Assembly (NCBI GenBank): GCA_016839815.1
Contig: JAEOTM010000082.1
Location: 1 to 12,915, forward strand
Source of the DNA: Candidatus Hodarchaeota archaeon
GTDB lineage: Archaea > Asgardarchaeota > Heimdallarchaeia > Hodarchaeales > Hodarchaeaceae
DNA length: 12,915 bases
Direction: 5' to 3'
Part shown: in pieces, positions 1 through 10,678 of the stretch
Layout of the letters: every line of letters begins with the position of its first letter
Position numbering within the stretch: the first letter of the stretch is position 1
Position numbers and translations under genes: made by a program
Notes under the pieces: model-generated
The model's database searches: none
The model's input: the letters and a program-made list of their open reading frames with translations, nothing else
Told to the model about the DNA's origin: nothing

Positions 1-57
1 GGTCAGGATGATTCCGAAGTAGTAGACGTTGATTATGAGATAGTTGATGAGGAATAA
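1..57 (+). CDS. dnaK: 3' end of Hsp70 chaperone DnaK (partial, 5' truncated)
   Basis: Frame 1 reads GQDDSEVVDVDYEIVDEE*, matching the acidic DnaK C-terminal tail (VVDADFEEV-like). It lies directly upstream of dnaJ. Confidence 0.85.
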   Translation, partial: GQDDSEVVDVDYEIVDEE

Positions 58-77
58 GGGAGATAATAGAAAAATAT

Positions 78-85
78 CAGGTGAT
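78..85 (+). promoter_or_regulatory. Shine-Dalgarno site (CAGGTGAT) of dnaJ
   Basis: Canonical archaeal GGTGAT at 80-85, 4 nt upstream of the in-frame CTG at 90. Confidence 0.7.
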
Positions 86-89
86 ATGA

Positions 90-1241
90 CTGAGCAATAA
101 TAACAAGCGCGATTATTACGAGGTTCTTGGTGTCCAAAGAGATACTAATGAAAAAGAGATTAAGAAAGCCTTTCGCAAGTTAGCAAGGAAATATCATCCT
201 GATATGAACCCCAACAATCCAGAAGCAGAAAAGCAATTTAAAGAAGTAGCTGAAGCGTTCGAAGTCCTTTCTGATGACCAGAAACGATCACTCTATGACC
301 GATATGGTCATGAAGGACTATCTGGAACCTCCTTTAGAGATTTTTCAGGAATGGGACTAGATGATCTATTTGGTGGTTTTGGAATATTTGATAGTATATT
401 TAATGCATTTGGTGGGGGAACACGAGCCCGAACTTCAGGCCCTCGCGCTAGACGTGGTCAGGATGTAAGACTCAATATTGATCTTTCTTTTGAAGATGCA
501 ATGAAAGGAATGAAAAAAACCATCAAAGTTCCTAATTGGGCTCAATGTCCTACTTGTCATGGAAATAGAGTCAAAGAAGGGAAATCACTTCTTAAGTGTA
601 GCACATGTGATGGAGTAGGGGAAGTGCGTCAAGTACAGAGAACTGCTTTTGGTCAGATGATTAATATTACAACTTGTCCAAAATGTCGCGGGGAAGGGGA
701 GATGTTAAAAAAAGGAACAGAGTGCAAAACGTGTAAAGGGGTCGGTAAGGTAAAACAATCAAGAACAGTGGAAGCTCAGATACCTGCGGGAGTTGATAAT
801 GGAACAAGAGTTGTAATACAAGGAGAAGGACGTCCTGGAGAATTGGGAGGACCTTCTGGAGATTTGTATTTAGTAATAAATGTATTTCCTCATCCATTTT
901 TCCAAAGAAATGGGGCAGATATACTTCTGGAATATCCGATTAGTTTTCTTGATGCAGTCTTAGGGACTAAATTGCTAATTCCTACAATAAATGGAAACGA
1001 AAAGATTACTATTAAACCTGGAACACCATCAGGAGAAGTAATAACTCTTAGAAAGAAAGGTGCTCCTTATCCGAATCGATCAGGGCATGGTGACATGCAT
1101 ATAGTTATTAATGTAAAATTTCCTAGAAAGTTAGAAAAAATTGTAAAACAAACATTAATCGAACTGCAAGAGTCAGATAAAACTGATTATGTATTTCGAG
1201 ACAATTCTGAATTAGCAAAATTCCTGCTTTCGCAAGAATAG
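90..1241 (+). CDS. dnaJ: Chaperone DnaJ (class A Hsp40); probable CTG start, extending the ORF-track start at 204
   Basis: The frame is open from 90: (L/M)[37 protein letters not shown] gives the J-domain with HPD. It is followed by a G/F-rich region, four CxxCxGx(G/R) zinc-finger repeats ([32 protein letters not shown]) and the C-terminal domain ([12 protein letters not shown]). Confidence 0.97.
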
Positions 1242-1266: not shown

Positions 1267-2364
1267 TTATTCTCTAAGGGGATTCAATCTTCGTAATTTT
1301 GAGAGATTATGGATGCGGAATGTTTCCCACGGTGTATTCATCAGGATTTTCCAATTACTATAGCAAGAGCAGATTTTAGAGAAATTTTCAGGTAATTTTT
1401 CTTTCTGAACAGCTTTCTCGATAAGTTTAAGTACCAACTTATCACATTTTCCACAGTTATGAGCTCCTCGTTCTTTACCTCCTGCAGTGGGATCACAGAT
1501 TATAGTAGAATTTGGGAAAAGCTCGTTACTCATCTTTATCACTTGAAGAACGGTCCATAACCAAGGAGACTGGTACTCATTTTTTCTAAAGAGCTCATAG
1601 ATCAATGTCCCATTTTGTACATTGCATGGGTTTATTGAAATAACATCAGATCCCAAGTGTTGTGCATCGATTATTGTCTTGATTGCATCTCTTAATGCTT
1701 CTTGTTCATTAAGGAAAGGTGGTTTAATAAAAACGTAACTCTTTACAGTAATTCCTATTGAATGTAGATATTCTAAACTAGATTTAAAATTTTCTAAAGT
1801 TGTACCCTTATTCCAACAGTCTTGTAAGATTGCATTATTAGAGCTTTCCAATCCTAAACCAATCTCTAGAGATACATTTGAAAGTTGTTTGAGTAATTTT
1901 TCAATTACCTTTTTCTCCTTCAGGATGTATTCAGGTCTACATTCGACCGATAATTTGATAACTTTACCAGATTGTGTAATCAGGTCTATTAACAAGTCTC
2001 TTAATTCTTCTGGAACATCATCTTTATCGAAAAAACTCCCAGAGTTAAATATCTGCAATTCTAATGGTTTTGTATATTCTACATCAATAATTACCCTTGT
2101 TAATTCCTCTTTAATTAGTTTAATTGGGATTTTGTTCTCCCTTGAGGAATCATTCACATATCCACAGACAGAACATCCTCCACTTTCTGACAATGCCCAA
2201 CTACATCCTCTGGAAGGAATTAAAACTGTAATTATAAGTAAATTCTCTTTTTCGGATACGCTACTCCAGATTTTTGCATGTGATTTATCCGATATATGCG
2301 TTAAATAGTCTTGCCGAATTCCTTTAATTTTCCTAGTAAGGAGTGGATTTGTCTTATTAAGCAT
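1267..2364 (-). CDS. raSEA: Radical SAM enzyme for archaeosine formation (RaSEA, TIGR01210-type)
   Basis: Atypical radical SAM motif GCSWALSESGGCSVCG, plus IFNSGSFFD, VECRPEYI, IGLGLES, KPPFL, PWLWT and C-terminal RGAHNCGKCD. Overlaps the arcS stop by 8 nt. Confidence 0.9.
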   Translation of the reverse strand: MLNKTNPLLTRKIKGIRQDYLTHISDKSHAKIWSSVSEKENLLIITVLIPSRGCSWALSESGGCSVCGYVNDSSRENKIPIKLIKEELTRVIIDVEYTKPLELQIFNSGSFFDKDDVPEELRDLLIDLITQSGKVIKLSVECRPEYILKEKKVIEKLLKQLSNVSLEIGLGLESSNNAILQDCWNKGTTLENFKSSLEYLHSIGITVKSYVFIKPPFLNEQEALRDAIKTIIDAQHLGSDVISINPCNVQNGTLIYELFRKNEYQSPWLWTVLQVIKMSNELFPNSTIICDPTAGGKERGAHNCGKCDKLVLKLIEKAVQKEKLPENFSKICSCYSNWKILMNTPWETFRIHNLSKLRRLNPLRE

Positions 2365-4237
2365 TATTTTTCACCTTTTGACGAATCTTAACACCTAAAC
2401 CCCGAGGCATGTCCATCAATAATTTTCCGGGAAGATAAGCTACTCCAGTTGCAATAATCTCATTATCCCCATTAACTACGATTACTTCATCATTTATTCT
2501 AATCTCTTGATCAGCTTCTTTTATAGCATTAGCAAATATCGTAGTACCATTAATGATTTCGCCATCAAATCTAACTACATTGTTTGTTAGACCAAATATC
2601 CGCTTTGCTGCTTCAATAGATAGCGTTAATAATCCAGTTGTGGAGCGAAATGTCATTAAATGCTTTCCAGAAATTTGAATTCGAATACCTAGCTCTTTAT
2701 GTCCTTGCAACTTTGATTTTTCAGGAATAAGCACTTTTCCTATATCCCGTCCAAATTGGAAATCAGCTACAGTTCTTAAGAATTCTAACAGCTTGTTTCC
2801 TTTGGAAATTGGTTCAATATCTAAATTTTCTGAAATGAGATGACGAAACTTATATAAACTCTCTTTAGAGATAAGAGATGATTCTACCTCATCGATTAGA
2901 AATATTTCCCTGTTTAATTTTCTACATACATTAGCTAATACCTCTCCTTCTGTTCCCCTAACATATCCTATGAGTTGAATAGCTTCTGGAATTTTATTTA
3001 GAAACGCTTCGAGATCATGATGAAGTAGTTTTTTTTCCACTCCACTCCATTCACCAGTGACTGGAATGTCATAATGTGCAGCGGGGTATGTATATTCTAA
3101 TTCCCTTGGAACAACTCCCAAAGGACTAGTGAGTATTATTTCTGCAATCGAATGACGTTTACTCTTCAATGTTCTCCGAATGACTCTTTGGAAAGCCTGA
3201 TGTGATTTTGATTGAGAATATGGTTTTTTAGCCGAACAAGGAAGGAAAATAATCCCTTGGATATGTGATCCCAGCTGAAATCTATCTTTCACTCGTTTTC
3301 TAAACCGTGCAACTTCAGGTCGAGAAAAATCAGTCTGGTCTGTACAATAAAGCGATCCAGTACTGTAAATTGAACACCCTACATCAAGGGGAATTTGCTT
3401 ATCTATCAACCTGAGCAGTGTCTTCTGAGGAGGGTATGAATTGGAATAAATTCTAACCAAATCTCGGAGTTTTCCATTTTTTAGAGCAACTCTTGTACGT
3501 TTTAGGGCTAGAATAAATTCTTCCACTGAGTTTTCAATTTCTAATACAATATCTGAATTATTAGAAATAGAGCGATATGTAAAGTCAAATAAATCTACAC
3601 CTAAGTAAGCTAAGATTGGAAAGAATGAAGAAGGCACTCCAGGTGCATAGAGTAAAACATCAGGGGTAATTTTTTTACGTACAGAAGACAGATATGAAAG
3701 TAGAAATTTTGGGTGATTGAGGAAAGATGTAATATCTCCCAAACAAATGCCTTCTATGTTCAGCAAGGGGAGATTTTTCAAGGTGTTTACCTGAATGGAC
3801 TTGAAAGGAACGTTTATCATAAATTTGGAATTATTAATAATATTAGTTTTCGATACTAATTCGTTAACTCTTTTATAATAGTTTTTTCCATTATCAATAT
3901 AGATTTCAGGTAAATCCCAAGGAACTAAATTGAAGGAATTGTTTCTAGAAGTCAAGAATTCCTCGGATTTTGGAAAAAACTCTTCAATTTTAGTAAGCTG
4001 AGATAGTGATTTACCTTGCATCTGTAAAGATGGGTATATGTTACAGTTAGGATAAGAGACTGAGTCATGAAATTGAGGTTGAGAGGAAACGTGACTCATA
4101 ATGGTTTTTTTGATAGGATCTTTTATTACTTCATTTCTCTTATAGATATTTAGAAACGTAGGTGTTTCATAAGTTTTTCCCAGATTGAGGATACCAAGCC
4201 GCCCCAGTCCCTCTAACTTTTTGATTTCAAATGACAT
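2357..4237 (-). CDS. arcS: Archaeosine synthase subunit ArcS (TgtA2) with C-terminal PUA domain
   Basis: TGT-like N-terminus (GLGRLG...ETP, YLGVDLFD), ArcS motifs LPCSAKKPYSQSKSH and TSPLGVVPRELEYTYPAAHYDIPVTGEW, ADFQFG, and a PUA domain (IRINDEVIVV...IIATGVA). A GGTG SD lies upstream. Confidence 0.93.
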   Translation of the reverse strand: MSFEIKKLEGLGRLGILNLGKTYETPTFLNIYKRNEVIKDPIKKTIMSHVSSQPQFHDSVSYPNCNIYPSLQMQGKSLSQLTKIEEFFPKSEEFLTSRNNSFNLVPWDLPEIYIDNGKNYYKRVNELVSKTNIINNSKFMINVPFKSIQVNTLKNLPLLNIEGICLGDITSFLNHPKFLLSYLSSVRKKITPDVLLYAPGVPSSFFPILAYLGVDLFDFTYRSISNNSDIVLEIENSVEEFILALKRTRVALKNGKLRDLVRIYSNSYPPQKTLLRLIDKQIPLDVGCSIYSTGSLYCTDQTDFSRPEVARFRKRVKDRFQLGSHIQGIIFLPCSAKKPYSQSKSHQAFQRVIRRTLKSKRHSIAEIILTSPLGVVPRELEYTYPAAHYDIPVTGEWSGVEKKLLHHDLEAFLNKIPEAIQLIGYVRGTEGEVLANVCRKLNREIFLIDEVESSLISKESLYKFRHLISENLDIEPISKGNKLLEFLRTVADFQFGRDIGKVLIPEKSKLQGHKELGIRIQISGKHLMTFRSTTGLLTLSIEAAKRIFGLTNNVVRFDGEIINGTTIFANAIKEADQEIRINDEVIVVNGDNEIIATGVAYLPGKLLMDMPRGLGVKIRQKVKNNA

Positions 4238-4553: not shown

Positions 4554-5975
4554 GTGAAATTTCCCTTGAGCTCTTCCCTTAGTAATACACAGATGATGGA
4601 ATATTTCCGTCCCAGAGGAAAAATCGTTTGTTTAGGAGATAAGATGAAACCAGAACTTGAGCTCGTAAAAAAGATATTAGACACATATAACGACAAGCGA
4701 ATACCTGTTCTTCTTCTTAGCTCTTCCACAAATCTTAGTGAATATGCTGATCAAGTAGTAATCTTTGACTCAGATTCGACAATAGCTCAAGTGCATAATC
4801 TCCTAAATTCCTCTTTCCTCTTTTTTCTATTTAATTCATCTGAAGAAGGAATATTGAGAATCTTGGGAACTATTTTAGCATCTATTGAATACAGAGGTAC
4901 AATCCCAATTTTTATTGATACTGGAAATGGCTTTCCGACCGAGCAAAAGAGAAATTTAGGAGAATGTTATTTTCATTTTGATTTGTTTGAAGAGATTAAT
5001 CAAAAGAATTTTTCAATATTCTTAGAAAGCGCAATCTCCGTTTTATCACCCACCTCAGGGCTTGGTATATCTTTCTCAGATTTAATACAGATTTTCGGGA
5101 AATCAGAAAGTCTATTTTATGGAATTTCTGAATCGAATCAGTTAGAAGATGTCCTTGAGGACTTAGTAAATCAGATTGGGGAAAAGTTAGTACACACATT
5201 ACCTGAGGAATTAGAACGTTTAGAAGCTATTTTTATTTCAGTAATCTCAGGAAATTCAATCAGTTTGCAAACTATGAATAAAATTACCTCTAAATTTGCT
5301 TCAACATTTGGAAGAGAATTCAATATCCATTTTTCTAACTCTGTAGAACCTGAGCTTCAGGGTTTTAAAGCATTAACAATACTTACAGATCTTCATCCTA
5401 TTAATGAAATATTCCCAGTAGCAAAGCCATTTCTAATGTTAGACTTCGAGAGTGAATCTGAAGATACATCAAATGAATTATCCTTCTCGAGTCATAAAGA
5501 GAACCCCTCCAAAGATGATGAAGAAGAGATGAGATTTCATATTCTGGGTAAAATCTTTTCTGAATCTGAAGTGTATATTTTTGATGATGGTGGCCTTCCC
5601 TTATTTGCAAGTCACCGGCCAGCAGGGCAAGAAGTTTGTCTGTATACAGGTTTGTTTTCTGCAATCCAGTCTATGAGTTCCGATTTAATAGGGCACTCCC
5701 CAGATCATCTTACCGCAGGGGATAAGGAATGTGTATTCGTTACACAGAAAGGCCCGAATCAAGTGCAGCTAAGGGGAGTAGCCATTTGTAATGGTGGACA
5801 TGAAGAAACAGCCAAGAATGACCTTAAAGTTTCAATGGATTTAGTCCATAGAATAATGCTTCAGGGAGAACCTGAATACGCTATAAATGATAAAATCCAA
5901 GCAATTCTTGTCAAAAGTTTTCAGAAAGGAGAACTCACAAATGGGTTATCCTTAGCCAAATATCAGGCGAGCTGA
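4554..5975 (+). CDS. Degenerate FtsZ/tubulin-fold protein fused to a C-terminal longin-like domain (start GTG 4554, or ATG 4593/4596)
   Basis: aa ~20-280 align by eye with FtsZ: DLFEEIN...GLGISFSDLIQIF vs FtsZ DAFGAAN...GLMNVDFADVRTVM, and AIFISVISGNSISL...IHFSNSVEPELQGFKALTILTDL vs GVLVNITAGFDLRL...VVIGTSLDPDMNDELRVTVVATGI. There is no GGGTGTG. An acidic linker spans aa ~297-325. aa ~337-460 carry the longin-type pattern VYIFDDGGLPLF...LYTGLFSAIQSMSSDL. Confidence 0.65.
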   Translation: MKFPLSSSLSNTQMMEYFRPRGKIVCLGDKMKPELELVKKILDTYNDKRIPVLLLSSSTNLSEYADQVVIFDSDSTIAQVHNLLNSSFLFFLFNSSEEGILRILGTILASIEYRGTIPIFIDTGNGFPTEQKRNLGECYFHFDLFEEINQKNFSIFLESAISVLSPTSGLGISFSDLIQIFGKSESLFYGISESNQLEDVLEDLVNQIGEKLVHTLPEELERLEAIFISVISGNSISLQTMNKITSKFASTFGREFNIHFSNSVEPELQGFKALTILTDLHPINEIFPVAKPFLMLDFESESEDTSNELSFSSHKENPSKDDEEEMRFHILGKIFSESEVYIFDDGGLPLFASHRPAGQEVCLYTGLFSAIQSMSSDLIGHSPDHLTAGDKECVFVTQKGPNQVQLRGVAICNGGHEETAKNDLKVSMDLVHRIMLQGEPEYAINDKIQAILVKSFQKGELTNGLSLAKYQAS

Positions 5976-5985
5976 AATCATCTAT

Positions 5986-6621
5986 TTATTTGGAAATCGA
6001 GTTTATCGCATTATTAGTATGAAAACGTTCATAGATTTTCTCTACGTATCCAAACTCTTCAATCAGTTCATGAATTCGTGTTGATTCAATATAGACTTCA
6101 GATGACCATAGGATCAAATATGCAGTAATGACGTGTATTTGAGGTGTAATGGATTCTTGTATTTCGAACACGATTTGTTTTCGGAGAGCTAGTTCGGTTT
6201 CATACATATCAATTATTTCTCGAATGGTATTTTGTGCCTGGTCGATAATTTCTAAATCATGGGGCCATTCAACTTTTTCTTTTACAGTACGATTTTTCGC
6301 TGGTTGAAGGATATCGCAATTGAAACTTGTCTCTATTTTTCTCATTTCTCGAATAACATCTTCAAAATGAGCAAGAAATTTATTTAATTCGAGAATATGT
6401 CTATTGATCGATTCAGCAAGGCGGAAAGCTAATCTTCCTTGTACATCATCGAATCGCGTTTTAACAGCTTCTGAGAAAACATCAGATCTCTGAGTCATGT
6501 TATATCTTGATAGAATATTCAATACCATATTTACTGTTCGTAATGACTGGCCCTGTACAGTAGTCCATTTTTTTTGAGAGATTTGAAGCCTCTTCTTAAA
6601 GACTCGTATACTCTGACTCAT
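5986..6621 (-). CDS. CINP/C1orf109(AIRIM)-like alpha-helical protein
   Basis: 211 aa, predicted all-helical. Motifs KWTTVQGQSLRTVNMVLNI, WP, DMYETELALRKQIVFEI and AYLILWSSEVYIES match, in order, the human CINP motifs as recalled (KWETLNDAGFTTANNIANL, WP, EMYRKELLLKRTVAKEL, SYLSMWLHQPYVES). Confidence 0.7.
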   Translation of the reverse strand: MSQSIRVFKKRLQISQKKWTTVQGQSLRTVNMVLNILSRYNMTQRSDVFSEAVKTRFDDVQGRLAFRLAESINRHILELNKFLAHFEDVIREMRKIETSFNCDILQPAKNRTVKEKVEWPHDLEIIDQAQNTIREIIDMYETELALRKQIVFEIQESITPQIHVITAYLILWSSEVYIESTRIHELIEEFGYVEKIYERFHTNNAINSISK

Positions 6622-6846: not shown

Positions 6847-9000
6847 TTGTCTTTATGTGTGAGTTGGTTGGTGAAAACGTACCCAGTATTATTCATAACT
6901 TTATTACTGGTTTTTTCTTACAGTAATGCGGATTCAGTCCATAACCATCATAATGTGACTGCTTTTTCTCTAACGTCACACGCCAGTAGCACTGATTTTA
7001 CTAATTCTACAGTTATCCAGTCAGGAATTCCTCAAGAAGGGGTTTTTACAAGTGAGAATAAAACTCACTACTGGAAGTTAGAAGATGTTAATCAAGGCCA
7101 AGTTGTATATCTTTCTCTTACCCCATACAGTGAAATGGAAATAGATCTTTATCGACCATCAGGAGAAAGTTTCTCCCAAATCTTAGAACCTACTGGAAGC
7201 TTAACCGATTATCTTGCTTCTTGGTCGGCAAATGATGATGGGGATTGGATAATTGCTATAAACGATACACGTGTGGCTCCTGATCTAAATGTTACTTACT
7301 CTGTTTTAGTATTTATGCCAAACTCAGCCTTTAGTTTAGATTCAGCCATACTAGTCAATGAGCTTCCAGTTAGAGCAAACTTTACAGTTAGTCATGAAAG
7401 CCATTATTGGAAGGTGTTGCTAAAAGAAAATCAGGTCGGAATATTAAATTTGCGGGAAATCACACCAATTGTACTACGGGAGTCTATAATTACAATATAC
7501 AGAAAGCTCAATCCCCAAAATCCAATTCTTCTCCCATTTGATATATTACAGAGCAATTATAGCTATTCATGGAATGCACCCGCGACAGATACATATTTTG
7601 TGGTCATTACACATAAATCAGAATTCCCTATAGGTCAATATAATATTTCATTTACAGTTGAGTCTGCTGGGTATAGTTTTGAAACCGCACAGGAGATACC
7701 TTTTAATCAGACATTTGCCATCAAAGTTGAACAGGGATTTATTCCTCGTAAACGCTATTATTTCAAATTTAGAATTAATGCAAGCCGTACTATCGCGAAT
7801 ATCCGTGTATTTGAGGTGAATACTACAACATCTACAATATTAGACTATGCGATCGTCGAAATCTTCGATGAGGGTCGTCAAGAACCAATTTTCTTACCCT
7901 GGCATGAGGAACAACAGAAAAGAGATGGTCAGATAAATATCTCTGAAAGGCTTGATGCTGGTATTTATTATCTACGAGTTACACCAGAGTCCAATGCAGT
8001 TGGTACGTTTCAAATATTCTTAGAATATCGTTTACCACAACCGTTCGTATGGAGTATCGTCGCAATTCTTCTAAATATATGTACAATCGTCGTACTTCCC
8101 GTTTATTTAATTTATCTGGATTCTAGAGGAAAGTGGTATAGAGTAAATCAATGGACGGTTGCTACTTCTCTCCAAAATACCTTTAAAATTTTCAGAAATA
8201 GTTTCAGAGGAATATATAATATTAAGGAAGTACCTAGTGACTCTATATTGATTCATATTGCCAGTATTCCTTTTCGGACGTATTCTATCCTAAATTTTGT
8301 GGAATCTTCAGAGAATGAAACACTGGTTTTCTCAAAGCGAATTAATCGTAAATATGAATGGGGAATATACATCCTTGTAGGTTTATTTGTATTTGATGCT
8401 ATGAATATTATATCCTATATTTTGTTTTCTATCCAATTTCTTCCAATTTATTTCACGAATTTAACGTCCCTTATATTATTCTTAGCAATTCCAACCATTG
8501 CATTACTACTCATTGTGTTATTCATTAATGGATCATCATATATGACTTATAGTCAGGTACACAACCGAATATCGTACATATTACAGAATATTGAAGATTC
8601 GGAAGAGAATACGATGTCTTCATTAAGTATGGATCCAATTCAAGCCGCGAAGAGTATAAACTATGTGAGAGTCTTATGGAATCAAGCGAGACACGCTTTT
8701 AAGAGCCAAAATTACGAACTGTTCGTGATCAAAGCCGATGCAGCAGTGAAAAATTTACTCTCCACAAGATTCTTGCAAATCTGTCCTATAAATACCCAAA
8801 CAAAAGCAGATTTTCAAACTCAAGTAGTAGAATTAAGGAAACGAGGATTTGACCTGCCTAATGAGAAAAAAATTGCCCATTTTAGAAATCTTCGGAATAG
8901 GATAGTTCATTCATCAGTTACATTAGGTGAGAAAGAATCTGTTGATTGTTTCGCCTATTATTCCACGTTTATCACTCGATTAGGACTTCGTCCCACGTAA
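6847..9000 (+). CDS. Membrane protein: signal peptide, 3 PPC-like beta-sandwich repeats, 3 TM helices, C-terminal HEPN-like domain (start TTG 6847, or GTG 6871)
   Basis: Hydrophobic N-terminus ending SNA|DS. Three ~110-aa repeats (HYWK/HYWK/YYFK ... GDWII/DTYFV/GIYYL). TM segments at aa ~400-424, ~505-532 and ~540-560. The C-terminus has WNQARHAFKSQNYELFVIKADAAVKNLL and RNLRNRIVH (R-x4-H at nt 8893-8910). Confidence 0.75.
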   Translation: MSLCVSWLVKTYPVLFITLLLVFSYSNADSVHNHHNVTAFSLTSHASSTDFTNSTVIQSGIPQEGVFTSENKTHYWKLEDVNQGQVVYLSLTPYSEMEIDLYRPSGESFSQILEPTGSLTDYLASWSANDDGDWIIAINDTRVAPDLNVTYSVLVFMPNSAFSLDSAILVNELPVRANFTVSHESHYWKVLLKENQVGILNLREITPIVLRESIITIYRKLNPQNPILLPFDILQSNYSYSWNAPATDTYFVVITHKSEFPIGQYNISFTVESAGYSFETAQEIPFNQTFAIKVEQGFIPRKRYYFKFRINASRTIANIRVFEVNTTTSTILDYAIVEIFDEGRQEPIFLPWHEEQQKRDGQINISERLDAGIYYLRVTPESNAVGTFQIFLEYRLPQPFVWSIVAILLNICTIVVLPVYLIYLDSRGKWYRVNQWTVATSLQNTFKIFRNSFRGIYNIKEVPSDSILIHIASIPFRTYSILNFVESSENETLVFSKRINRKYEWGIYILVGLFVFDAMNIISYILFSIQFLPIYFTNLTSLILFLAIPTIALLLIVLFINGSSYMTYSQVHNRISYILQNIEDSEENTMSSLSMDPIQAAKSINYVRVLWNQARHAFKSQNYELFVIKADAAVKNLLSTRFLQICPINTQTKADFQTQVVELRKRGFDLPNEKKIAHFRNLRNRIVHSSVTLGEKESVDCFAYYSTFITRLGLRPT
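6991..8028 (+). repeat. Three tandem diverged protein-level repeats (PPC-like), approx. nt 6991-7317, 7324-7659, 7666-8028
   Basis: Each unit has an F/L-x-x-A/S-x-x-I/V start (FTNSTVI, LDSAILV, FETAQEI), an aromatic-aromatic-K strand, an I/L-Y/F strand, a W/Y-hydrophobic strand and a terminal Y/F strand. Confidence 0.7.
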
Positions 9001-9439: not shown

Positions 9440-10678
9440 TCATTTTCCACCAATTTTTATTGAGCTTTTCGCTAATCTATGATTTTCACCAATGTAACAA
9501 TCAGCTTTGATTACTCGACCGTCAAAATGAGTCTGTTCTAGATCAAATTTGAATGTGTTTTCGAAGGAAAAGGTTTCACCTTCTGCAAGGGAACTAATCA
9601 GTTTCTCTTCAGTTCCCTGAGAAATCGAGACTCCCTCAGGTAGTTCGATTTTAATTTTAATATTCTGTATTGAGATTTTCCCAATATTTTCCACAAAAAA
9701 TGTAACCATGTATTCTAAATCCTCTTCAATCATCTCAGATTCCATTCTCAGATTCATTGCAGGTTCTGCATCTTTTGCTTCAATCGTATACAAATTTGAG
9801 TTACTCGGATATTCTCCCTCTTCATTTGGTATACTGTAAGTTATCATCAATGGACCTACCTGCCAACTTCCAGGTAGATTGGGAATCAAGGCAAAGTTGA
9901 TTGTATAATTTTCTCCTGTACTAAGCTTTAAGGGTAACTCTGGTGTGGTAGCTGAAATTAATCTCCCTTGAGAACCAGTCTTCAAAAAAACTGTATTTAC
10001 AGAGATCGGTGCATGGGCTGTAAGGGCCGCTGATAATAAAAACTCGGATCCCTTCTCTATTATTTGGTTCTTCTCACCTATAAAAACCTCTGACTGGCAA
10101 AGAGAACATCTCTGCATAATTTCCTCTGCTTTTTTCTTAATTTCAACAAATTCTTCAGGAATAGCAATTGTGGGTAATGGTTCATGTTCAACAAATGTCT
10201 CAGAAGAATGAATCAATGTCCATGCTAGTTTTATCGCTTTACCATATGAATCCTCTAAACTTCGTTTATTTGAATCATAGATAGACGAGAGCTTTTCAAA
10301 ATTTTTTTCTGAGAGGTAAATTAAGAATTGTAAGTATTTTATTTTGTTAGAAGCGATTTTAGGCTTTTTACTTGAACGGATCATTTGGAGTGTACGATCA
10401 ATGCTTTGAAATATCTCTCTATTAGATTTACGCTCCGCAGTAACTCGTAGTATTTGCTGATAATACAATTCAGATGCATTTTCATACATTTTAGCTTTTT
10501 CTGCAGACAAAGCAGCGTTATCAAGAGCTAATAGTTTCATTTCTTTTGTATCGAATTGTTGATAAGCTTTTTGAAACATTTTATGTGCTGCTTTAAAATT
10601 ATTTTTCTCAAAGGCTGATCTTCCCTTTTCAAAATTCGTTTGGGGATCTACACCTAGGATTCGTCGAATGAAAGACAT
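9440..10678 (-). CDS. Cytoplasmic TPR/alpha-solenoid protein with two C-terminal Ig-like (BatD/CARDB/ASH-like) domains
   Basis: aa ~12-190 are helical with a TPR pattern (FEKGRSAFEKNNFKAAHKMFQKA; NAALSAEKAKMYENASELY). aa ~193-302 and ~306-410 have Ig-fold motifs (LSTGENYTINF...PGSWQVGPLMITY; VENIGK...NIKIKIELPEGV...LAEGETFSF). No signal peptide or TM. GGTG SD 5 nt upstream of the ATG. Confidence 0.7.
   Translation of the reverse strand: MSFIRRILGVDPQTNFEKGRSAFEKNNFKAAHKMFQKAYQQFDTKEMKLLALDNAALSAEKAKMYENASELYYQQILRVTAERKSNREIFQSIDRTLQMIRSSKKPKIASNKIKYLQFLIYLSEKNFEKLSSIYDSNKRSLEDSYGKAIKLAWTLIHSSETFVEHEPLPTIAIPEEFVEIKKKAEEIMQRCSLCQSEVFIGEKNQIIEKGSEFLLSAALTAHAPISVNTVFLKTGSQGRLISATTPELPLKLSTGENYTINFALIPNLPGSWQVGPLMITYSIPNEEGEYPSNSNLYTIEAKDAEPAMNLRMESEMIEEDLEYMVTFFVENIGKISIQNIKIKIELPEGVSISQGTEEKLISSLAEGETFSFENTFKFDLEQTHFDGRVIKADCYIGENHRLAKSSIKIGGK

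Follow-up and report, generated by a model that had tools for sequence, protein, structure and literature searches.

The stretch of DNA analysed here (the window) is an entire contig of 12,915 bp (JAEOTM010000082.1, contig C24; G+C 34.5%) from a metagenome-assembled genome (MAG) of a Candidatus Hodarchaeota archaeon (GCA_016839815.1; 4.24 Mb, completeness 89.5%). On its reverse strand, an ATG-to-TAA open reading frame (ORF) at 5986..6621 encodes a protein of 211 amino acids (211 codons plus the stop). We are highly confident that this protein is a member of the Asgard “CINPL” family and that it is homologous over its full length to two eukaryotic proteins, CINP and C1orf109/AIRIM. CINP and C1orf109 together cap the SPATA5-SPATA5L1 unfoldase, which is required for late 60S maturation and for turning over the replisome; mutations in the unfoldase are found in human neurodevelopmental disease. 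A single-gene version in an archaeon is informative about how Asgard parts came to form this eukaryotic machine, and it would offer a simpler system for studying the function of the lid.

Relatives of the 211-aa protein (n = 85) share 48-88% identity with it. Those that are named are MAG proteins of “Candidatus Hodarchaeales”, “Heimdallarchaeota” or “Promethearchaeota”, and nearly all of the 85 already carry a precomputed tag for the Pfam family PF15011 from public pipelines. The highest identity, 88% to an NCBI “Candidatus Hodarchaeales archaeon” protein, places the gene in a member of the Hodarchaeales. Conservation begins at residue 1, and because the relatives align from this residue onward, the 211-aa start is, as judged from the alignment, the correct one. 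DNA of the locus is present in marine-sediment metagenomes; the sequencing runs that contain it are marine-sediment DNA runs only, with no RNA runs among them. The public gene call for the contig (P0008, 170 aa) starts at Met42 and is 41 residues too short. It loses the conserved N-terminal helix with the motif KKRLQISQKKW and has no precomputed PF15011 match.

The full-length protein matches PF15011 (CA109-like) at 43.5 bits, above the cut-off of 27 (E 3.9e-11), with residues 10-157 on model positions 7-153 of 161. A six-frame search of the genome reproduced this above-cut-off match, and no NCBIfam model matches the protein. Used as a single-sequence query, it has as its best sequence matches in the PDB the four deposited human CINP sequences, at an E-value of 0.03. 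A profile of Hodarchaeales sequences reaches human CINP at E 1.2e-3, and a profile of 25 diverse Asgard members reaches it at E 5.2e-10 over residues 7-177, that is, over the full length. In the HMMER alignment, residues 18-184 are paired with human CINP over ~165 columns. Human C1orf109 is not reached by the Asgard profiles at E-values up to 10. An exhaustive hidden Markov model (HMM) search of 1.84 billion representative sequences with the Hodarchaeales profile returned only 25 proteins at E <= 1e-3.

Eukaryotic proteins of both types score about equally against the Hodarchaeales-only profile. The Piromyces finnis protein P0104, a CINP ortholog (E 2e-8 to human CINP), reaches 50.1 bits, and P0108/P0118, a eukaryotic protein of the C1orf109 type, reaches 44.9 bits. 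The latter was typed by its PF15011 score (103 bits) and by its match to human AIRIM (9gwj_A, E 0.004-0.006), and its nearest ESM-Atlas clusters are eukaryotic C1orf109-like proteins. Because the fungal CINP P0104 passes PF15011 too (42.8 bits), this model cannot tell the two paralogs of eukaryotes apart. In profile-profile comparison with hhalign, the Asgard profile aligns with fungal CINP at a probability of 98.7% (E 2e-16, 175 columns) and with the C1orf109-type protein P0118 at 98.0% (E 2.7e-13, 172 columns). Pairwise BLAST between eukaryotic CINP and C1orf109-type proteins gives ~26 bits, and each of them scores 23-57 bits against the archaeal rows.

The similarity includes a series of motifs, all read from the reverse strand. 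A preliminary description, made from the sequence alone, had reported motif blocks in the same order as in human CINP and had likened the central segment RFDDVQGRL to AFPDLKERL of C1orf109. Both observations hold: the blocks K-W, MYETEL-L-R and LW..E.YIE recur in the HMMER alignments in the same order over the full length, and the central segments align column for column through P0118. In the close-family alignment of 28 Hodarchaeales-type sequences, 43 columns are invariant. The first motif, KKRLQISQKKW in helix 1 (residues 9-19; 6565..6597), is invariant in these sequences apart from L12, I14 and S15. Its W19 is nearly invariant across Asgard and is shared with both eukaryotic proteins; in the alignments it falls on KW in human CINP and on W in both P0118 and human C1orf109.

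The second motif, FSEAVKTRFDDVQGRL (residues 49-64; 6430..6477), covers the loop that joins helix 1 to helix 2 together with the first part of helix 2, and has the C1orf109-like pattern F-x-D-[IVL]-x-x-R-L. Within it, F57 is nearly invariant across Asgard, and F49, S50, F57, R63 and L64 are invariant in the close family; the Hodarchaeales consensus is F.DIPERL. Residues 56-64 (RFDDVQGRL) stand in register with AFPDLKERL of human C1orf109, the two being linked through P0118 by hhalign and by phmmer to 9gwj_A. The loop of human CINP at the place of the archaeal F..[IVL]..RL is polar and partly unresolved.

The third and fourth motifs are those of CINP. In helix 3, IIDMYETELALR (residues 136-147; 6181..6216) contains MYETEL-L-R, which is shared with MYRKELLLKR of CINP; I136, Y140, E141, T142, E143 and L146 are invariant in the close family, and M139 and E143 are nearly invariant across the Asgard alignment. 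Further on, at helices 4/5, LILWSSEVYIE (residues 169-179; 6085..6117) follows the pattern W-x-x-E-P/V-Y-I-E and corresponds to MWLHQPYVE of CINP. Its E175 is the sole column that is invariant across all Asgard rows, with W172 and Y177 nearly so. This motif aligns to human and fungal CINP; P0118 reads lyaaqpnv at the same place, and the W..EPYIE motif is lost in C1orf109-type proteins and kept in CINP. The complete set of CINP motifs (KW, MY..EL.L[KR] and W..[EQ]PY[IV]E) is thus present by HMMER and hhalign. As far as the alignments tell, the motifs are a mosaic, in which KW is common to all three proteins, the loop is C1orf109-like, and MYETEL and W..E.YIE are CINP-like.

The AlphaFold2 model of the 211-aa protein has a predicted local distance difference test score (pLDDT) of 86.6 and a predicted template modelling score (pTM) of 0.81. 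Helices are predicted at residues 5-43, 51-56, 60-114, 120-156, 162-174 and 180-210, so that, according to the model, the protein is a small bundle of five long helices. The top 11 matches of a Foldseek search of the PDB are all chains of CINP or C1orf109 (8cih, 9gwj, 9lgo, 8rhn) except for rank 7, a designed three-helix bundle. Complete CINP and C1orf109 chains have template modelling (TM) scores of 0.59-0.69, with E-values of 1e-3 to 6e-2. VIA-align superposes the model on CINP at Z 15.1-16.5 with a root-mean-square deviation (rmsd) of ~3.1 Å over 151-187 residues. The best of these, 8cih_A (Z 16.5, rmsd 3.1 Å, 180 residues), stands ~3 Z units over designed helical bundles, which reach Z <= 13.7 against the same model. 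For a helical bundle this structural margin is modest by itself, but homology is secure because it is combined with the sequence statistics. Profile, profile-profile and fold comparisons agree on homology to both CINP and C1orf109, as had been proposed, and the matches are not confined to generic coiled coils.

That Asgard archaea encode CINP-like proteins has been published, and the caution about novelty in the preliminary description was justified. Koestlbacher et al. (bioRxiv 10.1101/2024.07.03.601958; Nat Microbiol 2026, PMC12962969), in the portions of the article available to us, describe full-length homologs of CINP, termed “CINPL”, from five major clades of Asgard archaea, with none in other prokaryotes, and report that eukaryotic CINP clusters with Hodarchaeales sequences at an ultrafast bootstrap (UFBOOT) value of 99. 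The protein described here has an Asgard host and matches CINP at full length by sequence and by structure; it belongs to the same family and does not itself differ from those proteins. In the same portions of the article, C1orf109 is named only in the title of a reference, and there is no statement on C1orf109 homology, copy number, the motif mosaic or an archaeal ATPase partner. With the family already known, the explicit homology to C1orf109, the occurrence as a single copy, the mosaic of motifs and the absence of a Cdc48 paralog with a matching distribution (see below) are, as far as that text goes, refinements.

Human CINP (8cih, 9gwj_B, 8rhn_C/D, 9lgo_I/J) resembles the archaeal protein in length, in its five-helix bundle and in the motifs KW, MY..EL.L[KR] and W..PY[IV]E, although the two are only 16-19% identical. 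Human C1orf109 (9gwj_A, 8rhn_A/B, 9lgo_G/H) superposes at Foldseek TM scores of 0.62-0.69 over ~200 columns with an identity of 12-14%; it shares the loop motif, whereas C1orf109-type proteins lack W..EPYIE. CINP acts as a heterodimer with C1orf109 in humans, whereas the archaeon has one family member only.

A family match was found in 129 of the 400 Asgard genomes searched, with exactly one copy in 126 of these; the three genomes with two matches include pieces at contig ends. The gene is present in 21 of the 22 genomes of the window's genus (this one counted) and is common in the Asgard families f2, f12 (17/19), f28 (5/5), f29 and f30. In f31 and two families beyond it, taken together, 80 of 89 genomes carry it, and families f1 and f8 contain it as well. 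Family f4, which belongs to the same class, has no gene in any of its 31 genomes, and f20 was counted as lacking it, since its 135 genomes gave one match, which was weak (E 2.4e-4); further families also lack the gene. An exception to the single copy is P0103 and P0119 (MFX1253792.1 and MFX1253182.1; locus prefix ACFFCZ), two divergent members that apparently come from one Asgard MAG. Neither is clearly C1orf109-like, and chimerism of the MAG is possible.

A gene that is single-copy and combines motifs characteristic of both eukaryotic proteins resembles the form that would have existed before a duplication in eukaryotes, and on these two grounds we lean towards reading it as such. The near-equal scores of the two eukaryotic types against the Hodarchaeales-only profile, and their low BLAST score with each other, also speak for this reading. 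A single ancestor of both proteins had been suggested in the preliminary description. We built a family tree from 34 Asgard and three eukaryotic sequences. It does not resolve the deeper branching order, and the branch leading to the C1orf109-type sequence is 4.6 substitutions per site long. Forcing the three eukaryotic rows into one clade lowers the log-likelihood by 1.7 units and is not rejected by the approximately unbiased (AU) test (p-AU 0.33). The test likewise does not reject a grouping of fungal CINP with the window's family (see below), and no conclusion on rooting follows. The suggestion of a single ancestor is therefore compatible with all observations (single copy, motif mosaic, a eukaryotic clade that is not rejected), and a small tree with three eukaryotes and unresolved deep branches cannot prove it.

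What the protein might do is suggested by its eukaryotic relatives. Both homologs belong constitutively to the N-domain ring of a SPATA5-SPATA5L1 (CIP111-CDC48D) hexamer, in animals as well as in plants (PMC12019325, PMC11055677, PMC12332008). In the human complex, the loop of C1orf109 between helices 1 and 2 contacts CINP in a T-shaped heterodimer, with CINP E147 and C1orf109 D199 as interface residues (PMC12019325). In plants, the OPENER complex consists of OPNR (C1orf109-like), OAP1 (CINP-like) and OAP2 with CIP111 and CDC48D (PMC12332008). Because the pairing of the lid with an AAA+ ATPase is common to plants and animals (PMC12332008), it is old in eukaryotes. OPENER, which serves as our functional model, places a heterotrimer on a heterohexamer, and this assembly extracts Rlp24/RPL24C. 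In the archaeon there is just one gene of the lid type, alongside four VAT-like Cdc48 paralogs, and an Rlp24-like gene is missing.

With one family member only, a heterodimer of paralogs is impossible in the source genome. The loop that matches the CINP contact of C1orf109 belongs to the most strongly conserved regions of the archaeal sequence. The archaeal columns that align to CINP E147 and C1orf109 D199 are not conserved; the residue offset is uncertain here and this mapping was not used. CINPL might self-associate and serve as an accessory adaptor, like its eukaryotic descendants: one molecule would pack its loop against the bundle of a second, replacing the C1orf109-CINP “T” heterodimer, and the assembly would dock on the N-domains of a double-ring AAA+ unfoldase of the Cdc48/VAT type, where it could shape or select the substrates that enter the pore. 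Such an adaptor role is a tentative proposal, since it draws on the eukaryotic complexes of animals and plants and on conservation of the loop rather than on archaeal evidence. Taken as a whole (CINPL identity, pre-duplication form, ATPase adaptor), this is the best explanation that we can offer, although its joint probability falls somewhat short of even. A more specific version, which we consider unlikely as it stands, is that a 55LCC-like capped unfoldase already existed in Asgard archaea, with a single CINPL as a homo-oligomeric lid on the N-domain ring of canonical Cdc48/VAT. CINP and C1orf109 would then have arisen by duplication alongside SPATA5 and SPATA5L1, each keeping half of the contact motifs (the loop as a “plug” in C1orf109, the W..EPYIE side as a “socket” in CINP).

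The genome offers several candidate partners. It encodes four full Cdc48/VAT proteins with a CDC48_N domain (732-768 aa), in addition to a fifth, weak CDC48_N match. To compare their distribution with that of the gene, we collected CDC48_N loci from 31 Asgard genomes (this one and 30 others; 15 carry the gene and 16 lack it) and built a tree from 77 sequences spanning the N-domain and D1. Canonical Cdc48, represented here by the 746-aa paralog on contig C149 (L009:1017-3257:-), is the only clade present in every gene-carrying genome, and this clade is found in genomes with and without the gene. The C149 paralog is also the only one whose D1-D2 region scores slightly higher to SPATA5 (632 bits) than to the p97 D1-D2 chain (7wub_C, 618 bits). 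In the clade of the paralog on contig C6, seven of nine rows come from gene-carrying genomes, and the clade is missing from f12, f30 and f31. A complex prediction with two copies of the protein and the N-domain of canonical Cdc48 (score 0.01, mark 0.32) speaks neither for nor against binding. Separately, an insertion of ~31 residues distinguishes the N-domain of the paralog on contig C147 (L012:870-3176:-, 768 aa) from those of the other three; the clade of this paralog occurs in the window's genus and, more distantly, in one f3 genome.

A number of results count against the proposed explanation. No Cdc48 paralog clade in the 31-genome tree follows the distribution of the gene, and every non-canonical clade lacks members in some of the gene-carrying families. 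All four paralogs are closest to Thermoplasma VAT, then to p97/Cdc48 and then to SPATA5, and none is specifically AFG2-like. Because the gene is absent from about two-thirds of the Asgard genomes retaining Cdc48, CINPL is not a general Cdc48 subunit. No AAA+ gene lies in the 12,915-bp window or adjoins the CINP-like gene, and the genome has a single eL24 gene with no Rlp24-like placeholder (there is one spurious weak match besides). Human CINP and C1orf109 are each monomeric alone (PMC11055677), so that self-association of the archaeal protein is no given. In the family tree, the two fungal CINPs group with Asgard rows from outside the Hodarchaeales (91/82); placing them with the window's family instead lowers the log-likelihood by 8.3 units and is not rejected (p-AU 0.09). 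The published sister relation of CINP and Hodarchaeales was not reproduced in this sparse tree with its three eukaryotic rows.

There are other possibilities for what the protein is and does. It could be a true CINP/C1orf109 homolog that works in archaea without an AAA+ partner, as a helical scaffold for ribosomal, replication or other proteins, with recruitment of an AFG2-type ATPase only in the eukaryotic stem. The lack of a co-occurring Cdc48 paralog, of an AAA+ gene nearby and of an Rlp24-like substrate fits this possibility, and CINP itself was first described through replication and checkpoint partners (according to references cited in the available portions of PMC12962969). We nevertheless regard it as rather unlikely. 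In animals and plants, the sole biochemically established assembly of either homolog is the lid of a SPATA5-type hexamer, and the archaeal protein keeps the loop that forms the T-junction of this lid.

The archaeal protein could also be an ortholog of CINP only, with C1orf109 being of separate origin and alike through a shared simple helical fold. This would account for the Asgard profiles reaching human CINP (E 5e-10) and not human C1orf109, for the higher identity to CINP (16-18%, against 12-14% to C1orf109, in the Foldseek comparison), and for W..EPYIE being kept, of the two eukaryotic proteins, in CINP alone. It is improbable, however, given that PF15011, a model built on C1orf109, scores the archaeal protein and fungal CINP at ~43 bits each, that hhalign pairs the Asgard profile with a C1orf109-type protein over the full length, and that the loop motif is in register with human C1orf109, whose chains also match in fold.

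The genomic context raises a further possibility, that the function of CINPL is tied to its neighbours, the three forming a module related to the cytoskeleton or the membrane. The gene is convergent with a gene at 4554-5975 (forward strand) for a 473-aa FtsZ-fold protein with a roadblock-like C-terminal domain (AlphaFold2 model, Foldseek), and divergent from a gene at 6847-9000 (forward strand) for a predicted 717-aa membrane protein with no family match. All 20 other sampled genomes of the genus have the genes in the order FtsZ-like, CINPL, membrane protein (proteins 47-87% identical; two short loci have no membrane-protein match), despite identities of only 47-55% in the more distant ones. 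We give this reading little credence, since convergent and divergent genes form no operon, the trio is not kept in f2, f12, f28 or f29, where neither neighbour lies beside the gene, and conservation inside one genus may be simple inheritance. Finally, the notion of a generic helical bundle that is not specifically related to CINP or to C1orf109, for which one might cite the Z of 13.7 reached by designed bundles alone and the limited Foldseek E-values, can be practically dismissed: it is refuted by the PF15011, Asgard-profile and hhalign scores, which are independent sequence evidence clearly above the thresholds, and CINP and C1orf109 make up 10 of the top 11 Foldseek matches, with motifs in register over the whole length.

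The two flanking proteins have features of their own. The 473-aa protein has no Pfam, NCBIfam or usable ESM Atlas match. In its model (pLDDT 72.9), residues ~20-290 match FtsZ in all of the top 50 Foldseek PDB matches (E 2.5e-11, 8-14% identity). It may be a pseudo-GTPase, because the usual glycine-rich GTP loops are not evident (IVCLGDK and FNSSEEG are found). Its C-terminal domain (residues 323-457) is very conserved and has a roadblock- or longin-like order of helices and strands. The 717-aa protein has an N-terminal hydrophobic segment, a long Asn/Ser/Thr-rich part that is presumably extracellular, several hydrophobic segments and a helical C-terminal domain.

Further from the CINP-like gene, positions 1-1241 (forward strand) hold the end of a dnaK-like gene followed by dnaJ. 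The J-domain of dnaJ, with its HPD, is in frame and precedes the first listed ATG (204). It follows directly after a TGA (87-89), and only a CTG is available there as a possible start; an ATG at 86-88 is in the frame adjacent to dnaJ, four codons ahead of a stop. The sequence suggests either that the A/T-rich run at ~95-104 contains an indel of 1 nt or that translation begins at a non-canonical start.

On the reverse strand, 9440-10678 encodes a 412-aa protein with an N-terminal TPR/HEAT-like part (HEAT_Nup120 at 29.1 bits, cut-off 29, E 1e-6) and a C-terminal half that is probably beta-rich and has no family assigned; it is possibly another eukaryote-like helical-repeat protein. DUF5752 is also encoded in the window. 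Positions 1267-4237 of the reverse strand carry the archaeosine pair ArcS and RaSEA: the ArcS-like archaeosine synthase alpha (626 aa; DUF5591, TGT_C2, PUA) overlaps the downstream gene for the radical-SAM protein RaSEA (TIGR01210, 261 bits) by 8 nt.

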